47,442 bases of DNA from a virus (Duplodnaviria > Heunggongvirae > Uroviricota > Caudoviricetes), in IMG/VR virus record IMGVR_UViG_2913112809_000004, positions 1-47,442 of that record; one strand, given 5' to 3'. Made by a program: the position numbers. Below, piece by piece: positions 1 to 6,000 of the stretch. Each line of letters begins with the position of its first letter. Position 1 is the stretch's first letter.

Positions 1-3000
1 TTAAGTTGAATCAGCGACTACAACAAGCCACGATAACCAACTCTTTTTTTGCCCCATTTCTGCCCCTTTTGCAGCGTTTTGCCCCATTTTTGCCACCATA
101 AAAATCCTAAAAATACTCAATTCGTGAACTGCAGATTGCACCTCTGAATACTTTCCAATAGAATCCATTCCGGCTGGAAATTATTCAATATTCGCACTAT
201 CGAAAGTTAACCAGCCGACCGCAGCACGTTCTTGCATACGACGTGTCTGCGGTTTTTTTACATCTGCAAAACTGCACAAGACTCTTTTCATCCCCATGAT
301 TGTTTTAGGTCAAATTTCACACCGTTTCTTGTATTTATCTCATAAGCATGACTGATAAAGATTTCTACAATAAATGATGACAGGGGATTTATTTTATTGC
401 GCTATCAGTAAACTCACCTGTCAGACACAACATCCACTCTGTACGCCTGGTACTCGTTGTGTCTTTAATTGAAATATCCCGTTTGTCAGTATGTTTGTTC
501 AGATATTATGTTACCCCGTCTTTGTGTAGAGTCCTGTTATCCATGCTTTAGGTCTCGTTATCACGTACTTGAGACGGGGCTTTTTTTTACCATTCAGCAG
601 AAGTCCGCTATTTTTCTTGCTCTAACTGACTACTAATTGGGCTTTAATAAATGGCGATTTGGTATTTCCGGCACAATGAAAGATGGGATTTTTACAACGC
701 ACCGGATAGCTCACCCACAATAAGAGGTTTGTCGGGAAATCTCACAGGTAATTCAGATGTGTCCGTCGCTTCAACTTTTTGGGCATACAACATCCACTCC
801 CTGAGTGATTTTTTATCAGCTTCGCTGATAATCCCAAGTGACAGCCACGTTTGCCACAGCTGTGTTTTTTCCATTATCTCCTGAAGTAATTTTTGCTTCT
901 CCCGTTCAGCGTCACGAATTTTCGCCGCCCTTTCGGCCTCGTCGTCTTTTATCCATTTCGCACCATCCCATCGATGGAATTCCCCCTCTGGCGGTAAAGT
1001 GGTGACATCATCCGGCAAAGCCCCCGGACGGGAAATGCACAATGTCTTCCCGGTGGCTGTGTCATATACCGTTTTCCCACGGTGGTCTTCAACAACTTCC
1101 CACTGTTGCTGTGCATCGTTGAAAACGGCAACCTGGCCGGGGCCAGCCTCTGGCGGTTCGATAAGCGTGCAGTTCGCCGGTAATCCTGTATTCGGCGGAA
1201 TATAAACATCTCCTGCGCCTATATACTCTTTTGTATCAGCCCGTATGTTATAAATTTTCAGTGTCCGGGATTCCGGACTCATTTTGAAATTTGTCATGCC
1301 AGTCTCACAATGAAGTTAAACGCGATATTTTTAACTGTATTTTCTGCATTACCCGTCTCATCAACTGTGACATCATGACCATGCTCGCCCAGTGCCACGG
1401 TATGGGCGTGTGGGCCTATATTGGTACGATGTGCATGTGTACCGCCACTGCTGGTTGTTATATCCGCTATATATCCTGGCGTATCCCATTTTGTTCCACC
1501 GTTCCTTGTTGTTGTTCCAGCCCACACACCATTAACAATATGATTATGCTCTCCACCTGACTCTGTGCTTTTAGAGCCATAATCAAAGGAACTTGTCTCC
1601 CTTGAACCCAAATCCGTCGGTATCACCTTTGCTGTATGCCCGTGCCGCTTAACACCGTCCTCTTCAAGGGACAGAACAGCTCGCCCGTCGGGTTTGCCTT
1701 TTATTATCCACCCTCGCATATCAGGTATTACACCTGACGGAAATACAGCAGCCAGTTGTGGATACGCAGATTTATCGAATGGCTGCCCCTGCATTATTGC
1801 AAACCCCTCCGGGGGAATATCCGCTGGCCATGCAAAAGCTATCCCTGCCGGATAAGTACCGACAGATTTCAGTTCATCGACCGCTTTTCTGGCACTGTCA
1901 CTGTACTCTTTTGCATCCTCTGAACTTTTCCTGGATTCGTCGGCAAAGCGACCAGCTTCGTTTCTTAACTGCGTTGTCAGCTGTGCATTCTGCTCCACAG
2001 ACTGCGCTGCATCCGTTACTGTCAGGGTATTCTGATGCACCTGGCTGGCATTCTGCGCAACTTCTGATGCCAGACGCTCAACATGCTGTACGTTCTTGGA
2101 AACATCGCCTGCATTCTGCTGAATACCTGTCGCCAGGATTTCCACCTGCTTTTCAGTTTTCGCGGCATCCGCTGCGTGCTGTCCGGCACTTTGCGCGCAG
2201 CCCGCAGCAGCTTCGGCGCTCTTCCGTGATTGTTCTTTAAATTCCTCCGCCTTATTTTTATTGTCCAGAGCTGTGGTTGCTGCGTTTTTTGCAGCATCAG
2301 CGGCCGCTTCCGCTTTCTCCCTGTCACTGCTCACCTGTTCAGAGAGACGGTTGACCGTATCCGCAATTTCCTCAAAACGTTTCACCACATCCGGCTTCAG
2401 GTCGTCTTCATCAAGGGCGGTCAGAAAGTCGTTCAGCGTGCCGGGCTTTGAGTCGTAATAAACTGAGATATCACCAACACAGTACTCTTCGCGCCAGTCC
2501 TGCCGCAGATAAACGCAGTATTTTCCGACCTGCGCCTCGAACGAATATTCCCCATTATTTCCGGTCACCACGTCAGCAACTGTGCGCATCACCACTTCTG
2601 AGGTATTTACCCGGGATTTCAGAATTATGTGGCATCCGGACATGGGGATGCCTGCGCCATCAATCAGCGCTCCTGATATCACTACAGACATATTTTTCTC
2701 GCGATAAATAAAATCAGGAAGAGGCTTCCGGAGAGACAGGCCATTCAATGGCTCTGTATGAGGTTTTATCGGTGATAGTGCTGAAATCCATCGCCTGCAG
2801 CGATTTCGCGTATATACGCCAGGCTTTCAGCTTTTCTTTGTCTTCGTCGCTGATTAACCCCAGCAGCAGGTCTTTTTCCCATTCACCTGTCCGGAGGCTG
2901 ACCTGAGCCAGAAGCGACTCACGCTCATCTTCCGCTTTAAGTCTGTAATCAAAAACAAACTTATCATTGCGGTAAAACCAGTAGTCATTTTCTTCAATTC

Positions 3001-6000
3001 GACGGTATGCGGTAATATCAGGCAACTCGATAACACTCATTCCCTTCGGGTCAATGCCAGTCACGTCCTTTTCAACGGCAAATACCCTGCCTGAAGGAAG
3101 GTACGCAATCTTGATGGTATCAGGAGAGAACTTTTTTTTGTTCCTCGTACCAGTTTTCCCCGCTCTCAGAGAACAGCCACTCAATACCGTGCTCTTTTGT
3201 CAGTTTGTATTGCTCTGCCGTTTTTGGATTACCGGCTGTAATATTTTTTAAATGCAGCATAATTAAAGCGCCGTCACGTTATACCAGGTTCCGTTAATTA
3301 ATTTCTGAAGTGGACGGTAGCGCATATATGTTACGTGCGTCCCGCGACTCCCCCATACGTCAAGCGTTACCCCGGTCATTACACATCCTCCGGGAACATC
3401 TGTCGTCTGTGACGATGCTGTCGGAGAAGCACCCACCGAGCCAAGTCTTATATCCTGCACGATGCCTGTTTTCATCTGATAACGAGCATCAAAATTGCTG
3501 TAATTACCCGGTATAACCTGACCGCCTCCGGCGGTGATATTTCCGCTTGAAACATTTAAACCTCCGCCGACAGTCAGCCCGTTGCCCATCGTGACTGCGC
3601 CAGTGGCATTATTGATACAGAATGGCCTTAGTCCGTTATAGCTCCCAATGCTGTCGCCAGCATTGGTTAACATAAAATATGTGTTCGCACCGTCGTTTCT
3701 GACAAAAAAACCGTAATTACCATAAGCGATACGAAAGCCGTTTGCTGATTTTGATACAACCTCACCATTGATGATGGCATTCACCAGAACATACAGCGCA
3801 TCCAATTTTAGATTCATCAGGTCTTTGGTTGTGGTTCCAGACTTACTCCGCCACTTGAAATATTCGTTTCCATTATCCCCCGTTTCAAACCACAGATATG
3901 AATCGGTGTCTGAATCCGAATCATTTTTAAACCCAATCTTTGCCCAATCTGTATTTCGAATCCACGCAAGGATTGAGTCATTTTCAAACGTTAGCCCGCC
4001 CGATAATGCATCACCAGATTTTTTTACATATCGCAGATCAAAATCCGAATAAATATTGCCGGGGTTTATCACACTGAAATAGCTTTTCTCACTATCAAGA
4101 AGGCAAATTAAGGGAATGCCTTTAATGATATCGTTCGCTACCAGCTCGGACTGGTTCCCCTTATAAAGTGGGAACGTACCAAGAACCTTTCCGCCCAGTG
4201 TTAATTGAAGCGTCGCGGCGTTGGTATTGTTCTGAACGGGGAAAACGATAATCGGGGTTCGTAGCGTCCAGTCCGAGCCTCCATTAACAAAAAACGTCGC
4301 GGGAAGTTCAAGCGTCAGTGCATTTGCAGTGCCGCCAGCAACACCCGCAATATAATGACCACTCTGAAGCTGCGCTATCTGTACGAAATAGTTTTCCGAT
4401 CCACGCGTGGCAAAGTTAGCCACAACGTCATTAAGGGACCAACCTTTCGCGGTTGTTCCTTCCTGCCCACGAATGACTTTCAGCACATCACCGCTTACCG
4501 ATACCAGGTGACAAATCTCAAATGCAGACTCTTTATTATCGGTAAGCGTAATTTTTGCATAGACGTGTTGCCCGTTTGATTTATTTTCAAAATCGGCAGA
4601 AAGCAATTTTGCAAATTTAGCCCCCGTACCAGGCATCACCGGAATATCAGTCTGAATCGTCGTAATATCACCAGCCAGTGCTGAAACAACGTTATTGCCG
4701 AATCCAAGAATCATTTTTGAATCACCGTTGTTACATAGGAATAAATAAAAGGGAGTTTTACATATTTCTGGTCAATGGCATCTTTCAGAAAATAGCCGAT
4801 GCCATCGCCATACTCTGGTATCTGAACAGAAAAAACGCTGTCCAATACTGTCACACTCACATCAAAAGTGTGCTGCAACGGCGGGTCTATTCCGTTTTTT
4901 CCATGAATGAACCGCGCCACACGGCGCTTTAACCAGTCAATGCAAAAATGCGAACCGTCAGCCTTATAAAAATTCCACGTTAATATTCGTTTGAAATAAT
5001 CATCAGGGACATACGATGCCTGCCCCGGAACGTAATTCCGCATTGCTGCGTACGGGATCGTATTGTATTCAATGGTATCGTATGCACCGCGCGCAATAGC
5101 CTCCTCTGAAACCTGTAGTAAAGGTCTTTCAACACCGTAAATACCAAGTGCTATCCAGTCCAGCAACTGCCCGGTTATTGATTCCGATGTCCAGCATGGC
5201 AATGCCAGATTGTTGAGTGAATCGAGGTATTCCTGAGCAATTTCATTGTATGCTTCAAAGAACGCAACAACATTCGGATCATCTCTGTACTGCACAAACG
5301 GATAAGCAGGAAGAATTTTCTCAGTCAGATATTGCATACTTGTTGACCTGAACCTGTGATGCCACCGTTGAAAAATAGGAATAGGTATCGCCATAAACCA
5401 GGCTTGTGTCTTTCGCCGGAAGAACAATATGGCCGTTAATACCAATGCTCACACTGATTGTTGAGATCAATGTTGCATCAACCAGCAACCTGACAGAACT
5501 GGTAAAAATATCCTGGATACGCAGAAGATTTATCGGGTGTCCGACTTCAATTGAATTGATGTAATCAGCAACGTTTTGCTGCACAGCCATAGCAATACCC
5601 GCCGGATCAACATAATCATCTGACACCGTGTTCCAGGTGATTAGCACCATGACGTTTTGTGATGACGGGATAACGAACGGCACCTGATAAACATCCGGCG
5701 AAACGGTTATTGAAACCGTGCGTTTTTCCACTGCCGCACCGGATGGATTGCTTACATCGTTGGTCAGTTTCGAAATATCCGGTACAGATTTGTAAATCGC
5801 ATAAGCCACATCATACGGATCACCGCCACCAACAACCGCAACCCATTTCCCCAGCGACGACTGCCGGAAAGAAATCAGGTTTTCTCGCACACCACTTACT
5901 GATTTGAGCATCGCTTTAAAGCAATCCGGTGTTCCCTGCACACCAAACATGCCGGACTCCATGACTTCGGCGCGGTAAGATGCCCACGTTTGCGCCTCCT

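Follow-up and report, generated by a model that had tools for sequence, protein, structure and literature searches.

Phages Mu and P2 and the Stx2e phage phiP27 provide the closest described counterparts of the locus presented here. In Mu the U gene is located behind the fibre gene S, and the work on the 5YVQ structure is said to have established that Mu U attaches to the Mu fibre in its C-terminal part. In P2 the G gene is placed after the fibre gene H. In phiP27 (L54-L57) and related E. coli prophages the tail module runs in the order baseplate J, DUF2612, tail fibre, tfa (tail fibre assembly), a phage_tail_N second fibre and a second tfa/DUF4376, and the tfa homologues are intact genes of 181-182 aa that lack a long A run at the position considered below. 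The same gene order was found in the window, i.e., the whole stretch of 47,442 nucleotides of phage DNA that was analysed; its tail module is phiP27-like and carries two fibre-chaperone pairs, and its tfa DNA is 80-85% identical to that of phiP27 and the E. coli prophages. As in Mu and P2, tfa is placed directly downstream of a tail fibre gene. However, Mu has an invertible G-segment arrangement, while here there is none and both fibre-chaperone pairs lie on one strand, and the surrounding phage is not P2-like: two fibres are encoded, and the late region, with its baseplate J and DUF2612 genes, resembles that of phiP27.

The first pair starts with a tail fibre gene of 483 aa (3263..4714, minus strand; Gp34_trimer domain), the presumed client of the 181-aa chaperone, which is adjoined on the same strand by the tfa start at 3260. 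Directly downstream of tfa lies the second tail fibre gene of 465 aa (1294..2691, minus strand; phage_tail_N and Collar domains), paired with an intact second tail fibre assembly gene of 201 aa (692..1297, minus strand; Caudo_TAP). The original prediction had described the first tfa gene as broken at an A8 run, its remainder being read in another frame down to 2714, with one A fewer sufficient to restore a single ORF, and each of these statements was borne out. The ATG at 3260 opens a 46-aa ORF on the minus strand (3120..3260; 46 codons and a stop), which agrees with the intact protein over its first 43 residues; its TGA, at 3122..3120, falls just past the run at 3132..3139, which counts exactly eight A's when read on the minus strand and is T8 on the plus strand. 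The remainder of the protein is read in the +1 frame (2714..3133, minus strand), ends in SPEASS followed by the stop and contains virtually all of the Pfam Caudo_TAP domain. When one A is deleted from A8, a single ORF of 181 aa is computed from the window, and its translation is identical to the annotated tail fiber assembly protein P0121 of Escherichia sp. E4742.

The likeness of the N-terminus to P2 G, proposed in the original prediction, and the assignment to P2 gpG-like tail fibre assembly genes both hold for the repaired protein. It matches Pfam PF02413 (Caudo_TAP) with 90.4 bits over residues 40-178, against a curated cut-off of 22.1 bits, and PHROG 136 'tail fiber assembly protein' with E=1.7e-56. 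Residues 1-164 of Mu U (PDB 5YVQ_B) align with residues 1-158 of the repaired protein (E=8e-35), the C-terminal ~25 residues being different. P2 G (NC_001895, NP_046776) gave 36% identity over the full length in BLASTP (E=2e-44); identity rises to about two thirds over the first 60 residues, including the shared HLKNI, GNPKT, EQY-LTK, NWYEE and PDTIKI-Y, while the C-terminal half has diverged. The repaired ORF is full length against all four references, whereas the window copy is split by one extra A. Among the best 120 database homologues nearly all are single ORFs of 181 aa, and in the 90% cluster of the repaired protein the only truncated member is P0124 (156 aa), which comes from the same assembly as the window. 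Taken at its repaired length, the locus belongs to the P2 G / Mu U family and appears to be an ordinary intact 181-aa Tfa chaperone gene, the fibre-folding chaperone function being predicted because of the homology to Mu U.

The window belongs to contig PDHY01000023.1 (GCA_004745255.1) of the Escherichia cryptic clade II strain E4742. This draft (PDHY00000000) was produced from single-end Ion Torrent reads of 35-400 nt with a coverage of 50x. MIRA and SPAdes were used for the assembly, gaps through repeats were closed by hand, and its 113 contigs were the highest number among 16 drafts (PMC6639607). The strain was later re-sequenced with PacBio RSII at 172x, which gave one contig of 5,120,753 bp (PMC7716201). 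In this PacBio assembly (VATS01000001.1) the run is A7 and the 181-aa gene is intact, its product being identical to a protein listed by NCBI under Escherichia sp. E4742. Over 13.45 kb around tfa there are zero substitutions between the window and VATS01000001.1, and the only differences are two extra A's, both in the window copy and each breaking a gene. The independent Logan assembly of run SRR6148341, which seems to be a read set of E4742 judging from sequence identity and error style, also has A7 and encodes the intact 181-aa protein; over 2.5 kb it is identical to the window except for A7. Comparison of the run length in a related prophage, suggested in the original prediction, gave the same answer, since A7 and an uninterrupted gene of 181 aa are likewise present in the E. 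marmotae prophage CP188181.1 (98% aa identity). Hence the ORF that is split in the window (A8) is uninterrupted in all three of these sequences (A7). Among the close relatives, which belong to clade II and E. marmotae, all proteins contain EEQKKFSPD, and their DNA, where available, has A7; these relatives were obtained only through exact-protein look-ups, and a scan of genome, metagenome and viral contig collections for TGGTACGAGGAAC N5-11 GTTCTCTCCTGATACC gave zero matches. Homologues from E. coli, pPE4 and phiP27 have an interrupted A tract (CAGAAGAAC, CTGAAAAAT, CAGGAAAAA). A look-up of the 46-aa N-terminal ORF in public assemblies gave no identical product, so that the break is not known from any other assembly.

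The tfa run is not the only such case in the window. Over 47 kb the window and the PacBio assembly differ by ten one-base homopolymer lengths, the window being longer in all ten, and 5 of the 27 window runs of at least 7 nt disagree with PacBio. Besides the tfa run, disputed runs lie at 9335-9341, 29508-29517, 31899-31903, 33468-33474, 34083-34088, 36533-36537, 36797-36801 and 37202-37207. The PacBio assembly was rejected as the sole authority, since four other genomes side with the window at two short runs, 36533 and 36797, and show the Canu assembly to be itself one base short there; the verdict therefore rests on the agreement of several witnesses together with gene integrity. Unrelated E. 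coli loci, matched via a 69-aa protein beside the terminase gene, were used as arbiters of homopolymer length. With independent genomes as arbiters, it is the window that carries the surplus base, and with it the disrupted gene, at four of the ten sites, the tfa run included. The shorter run is present in thirteen other genomes at 33468, in four at 37202 and in E. marmotae and Logan at 9341, and at these three sites only the shorter run gives a full-length gene. Site 29508 is probably another gene-breaking +1 call in the window; counted with it, from 2 to 13 independent loci back the shorter run per site.

Homopolymer indels and the resulting frameshifts in assemblies are well documented for Ion Torrent, with A runs being the worst hit (PMC12046094). 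Such artefacts in draft bacterial assemblies consist of a one-base difference in an A run that frameshifts an otherwise intact gene, are not reproduced by other sequencing of the same strain and are accompanied by similar errors nearby. The tfa case fits this description fully: the platform is error-prone, a gene-restoring A7 is present in the same strain and similar errors lie nearby. Since other sequence of the same strain is one A shorter and gives an ordinary, unbroken gene, we consider it highly probable that tfa is an ordinary intact gene and that its apparent break is a one-base homopolymer miscount of Ion Torrent. The true run would then be A7, over-called as A8 in the Ion Torrent draft of E4742, and this consensus error would have produced an apparent frameshift in an intact Tfa chaperone gene. 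The original prediction had left two readings side by side. The homopolymer length error is now strongly favoured by the Ion Torrent source, by A7 elsewhere and by at least three further +1 errors, while a genuine or phase-variable inactivation finds no support, as the best 120 homologues are nearly all single ORFs of 181 aa and the homologues of E. coli, phiP27 and pPE4 do not share the A tract.

One may ask whether the tract is truly A8 in E4742, or in the culture from which the Ion Torrent library was made, and the gene inactivated. A8 is, after all, what the window sequence itself reads, runs of A7/A8 are natural slippage hot spots, and both same-strain assemblies with A7 carry deletion errors elsewhere, the Logan contigs having three private one-base deletions. 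As PacBio and Logan both make deletion errors, a joint under-call of a true A8 is to be regarded as unlikely rather than impossible. However, A7 is also found in the E. marmotae relative in addition to PacBio and Logan, and the gene, extra A aside, is identical to the intact PacBio gene, with an exact match of the repaired translation. Moreover, at least three other +1 homopolymer calls in the window are contradicted by independent genomes; were all the +1 calls real, several independent +1 slips in one prophage region would be needed between two DNA preparations from the same strain, and Ion Torrent is known for exactly such errors. An inactivating mutation is thus very improbable. It would leave the cell with a 46-aa N-terminal peptide in place of a working chaperone; the first tail fibre would then be unable to fold, and the prophage would be in decay or defective in part.

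Even fainter is the prospect that the poly-A run is a contingency tract, switching the chaperone on and off by slipped-strand events, or that A8 is expressed through transcriptional or +1 ribosomal slippage, with virions carrying or lacking the first fibre as the outcome. Both A7 and A8 are reported for nominally one strain, and A7 is kept in the close relatives (EEQKKFSPD in clade II and E. marmotae); the presence of two fibre-chaperone pairs makes it conceivable that one is turned off. Yet the out-of-frame layout is not conserved, given that the best 120 homologues are nearly all 181-aa single ORFs, the tract is interrupted in the homologues of E. coli, pPE4 and phiP27, and the step from A7 to A8 goes along with a switch of sequencing platform and with a further nine differences of platform type in the window. 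On A-rich heptamers the usual slip is -1, whereas the downstream frame here needs a +1 shift. Conservation is lacking for both the tract and the two-frame layout, and for this reason programmed or transcriptional slippage was rejected. Equally far-fetched is a real slippage hot spot at A7 with a substantial A8 subpopulation in the Ion Torrent culture. If such a subpopulation were true, it would imply an on/off chaperone for one of the two fibres and a phase-variable host range in a toxin-carrying prophage.

The miscounted A8, as we read it, has consequences for the use of the window as a whole. Its homopolymer lengths are unreliable, and at least four genes, probably five, are falsely frameshifted. 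The contig PDHY01000023.1 is, moreover, probably chimeric and joins two prophages that the PacBio genome places at a distance of about 245 kb from each other, the join passing through a 283-bp stretch common to both. Other broken genes, or an odd prophage architecture, that are seen in the window should be checked against the E4742 PacBio sequence before they are interpreted. The practical value of the finding is this caution about the window, while its biological interest is small, the locus being a standard Tfa chaperone gene.

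The minus strand from 3260 reads ATG CTG CAT TTA ... GAG GAA CAA AAA AAA GTT CTC TCC TGA, a 46-codon ORF that ends at 3120, shortly beyond the A8 run at 3132..3139, past which the +1 frame takes over and continues to a stop at 2714. On re-reading of the sequence the description given in the original prediction was found accurate throughout, and deletion of one A, as it had proposed, joins both frames into a single 181-aa ORF. The repaired protein matches the Pfam family Caudo_TAP (PF02413; 90.4 bits, cut-off 22.1, residues 40-178), PHROG 136 'tail fiber assembly protein' (E=1.7e-56), the crystallised Mu protein U (5YVQ_B; E=8e-35, residues 1-158) and P2 gpG taken from NC_001895 (36% identity, E=2e-44), the likeness to the latter being highest in the N-terminal 60 residues. 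Since these four matches agree, the label 'P2 gpG-like' is correct, and by homology the identity of the locus as a tail fibre assembly (tfa) gene of this kind is confirmed.

The 156-aa ORF downstream of the break is recorded in one assembly only, GCA_004745255.1, on contig PDHY01000023.1 (193.5 kb), to which the window is an exact match. This draft of strain E4742 (Escherichia cryptic clade II) rests on 50x coverage by single-end Ion Torrent reads 35-400 nt long; no other of the 16 drafts was as fragmented (113 contigs), and gaps were closed manually through repeats (PMC6639607). A runs are a known weak point of the Ion Torrent platform (PMC12046094). PacBio RSII sequencing of E4742 at 172x, done later by the group that made the draft, gave with Canu 1.5 a single contig of 5,120,753 bp (PMC7716201), a length matched exactly by VATS01000001.1 (GCA_005781185.1); this record is the PacBio assembly of the comparisons below.

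At the tfa run the window carries A8 and a split gene. A7 and an intact 181-aa tfa are found in the PacBio assembly, in the independent Logan assembly of run SRR6148341 and in the Escherichia marmotae prophage CP188181.1 (98% amino acid identity), the last of which supplies the comparison with a related prophage that had been asked for. The PacBio product is identical to the protein named by NCBI for Escherichia sp. E4742. In the 13.45 kb around tfa the PacBio sequence and the window show no substitution; only two bases set them apart, each an A added in the window, one lengthening the tfa run from A7 to A8 and the other the run at 9335..9341 from A6 to A7. The Logan contig was compared with the window over 2,556 nt, where the tfa run is the sole difference. 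In the cluster formed at 90% around the repaired protein, four members are intact at 181 aa and one is truncated, the latter coming from GCA_004745255.1.

Across the whole window, ten one-base homopolymer length differences from the PacBio assembly were found, the window being longer in every case, together with one substitution beside a T8/T9 run (30242); among window runs of at least 7 nt, 5 of 27 disagree. Because the differences run in one direction, either assembly could be biased, therefore the sites were arbitrated separately, by unrelated genomes and by gene integrity. The window is wrong at 3132-3139 and at 9335-9341 (7 vs 6 in PacBio), since at both sites E. marmotae and Logan have the shorter run and only this run gives a full-length gene; with the extra A at 9335..9341 a baseplate-hub gene (phrog_196) of 335 aa falls into two, of 202 and 136 aa (genes at 8911..9321 and 9311..9919, minus strand). 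It is also wrong at 33468-33474 (A7 vs A6, with 6 in 13 other genomes), where a DUF1367 gene (33023..33502, minus strand) has 159 aa in the window vs 199 aa with the 6-nt run, and at 37202-37207 (T6 vs T5, with 5 in 4 other genomes), where a Q-like antiterminator gene (about 37157..37489, minus strand) has 106 aa vs 173 aa with T5. The A10 run at 29508..29517 (A9 in PacBio) is probably a further over-call in the window, as a 92-aa Phage_holin_3_7 gene is called only in PacBio. At 36533..36537 and 36797..36801, on the other hand, it is PacBio that is wrong: the window has 5 and PacBio 4, four other genomes have 5 at each site, and a 213-aa ORF across both runs (36254..36958, plus strand) is intact only in the window. 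The length differences at 31899 and 34083, in non-coding DNA or outside the arbitrated sites, and the substitution at 30242 favour neither assembly; the first of these is a disputed C4/C5/C6 run at 31899..31903, beside the tRNA genes. Thus neither assembly is free of indel errors: over-calling affects longer runs of the Ion Torrent draft, and under-calling some short runs of the PacBio assembly, which is unpolished. Three one-base deletions are private to Logan contig 430 (at the equivalents of window 20178, 19916 and 7925), and two of them cut a 440-aa gene at 19301..20623 into three pieces. Errors of this style suggest that the reads of SRR6148341 are Ion Torrent data too, probably the E4742 run.

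The original prediction had left open whether the break is an inactivation, possibly phase-variable, or a homopolymer length error. The latter is now very strongly favoured: since A7 in three independent sequences, the integrity of the gene and the platform's weakness with A runs all agree, the break is almost certainly a miscount and no real feature of the gene. The doubt that is left comes from the two same-strain A7 witnesses, PacBio and Logan, both of which lose bases elsewhere. A true A8 would, however, need base loss by both at one site, as well as a real frameshift in a gene otherwise no different from the intact copy. Genuine inactivation, which would mean a 46-aa peptide in place of the chaperone and a first fibre unable to fold, is very improbable. 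A phase-variable or recoding tract has no support and is likewise very improbable: the run is interrupted in more distant homologues, none of the best 120 database homologues, nearly all of them 181 aa long, has the two-frame layout, and the frame change needed would be +1 instead of the usual -1.

The draft also appears to err on a larger scale. Window 1..38227 matches a PacBio prophage adjoining uspF/ompN/ydbK (VATS01000001.1, about 4.488-4.538 Mb), and 37930..47442 matches another, adjoining potC/potD/cobB (about 4.233-4.250 Mb), in the same orientation and ~245 kb away; a 283-bp stretch identical in both prophages (37945..38227) forms the overlap of the two parts. Both prophages are lambdoid, and the window probably fuses them into a chimera. 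This is most likely a misjoin, because a genuine junction would imply the loss of 245 kb of chromosome still present in the same strain's PacBio genome. It was possibly made in manual gap closure.

The tfa-bearing prophage carries a type II heat-labile enterotoxin-like operon (27411..28554, minus strand), in which the genes for the A subunit (Pfam Enterotoxin_a, 261 aa) and the B subunit (LT-IIB, 122 aa) are adjacent. It lies between the lysis genes and the prophage's genes for ParB_N, a TAGT-family protein and terminase, an arrangement shared with several other Escherichia contigs. Two tRNA genes, tRNA-Gly(TCC) and tRNA-Thr(TGT), lie at 31710..31863 (minus strand) in the late regulatory region.

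The start of tfa lies three bases past the stop codon that closes a tail fibre gene (483 aa, Gp34_trimer domain; 3263..4714, minus strand), and DUF2612 and baseplate-J genes lie upstream of this pair. On its 3' side follow a second tail fibre, whose domains are phage_tail_N and Collar (1294..2691, minus strand), and a second Tfa, this one intact (692..1297, minus strand). The same module, with tfa intact and DNA 80-85% identical, is present in phiP27, vB_Apl-pPE4 and many E. coli prophages. Nothing here falls outside what is known of the family. By homology, the 181-aa Tfa would most likely do for the 483-aa fibre what Mu U reportedly does for its fibre S (structure 5YVQ), binding the receptor-binding C-terminal region and aiding trimerisation; the second fibre would be served by its own Tfa.
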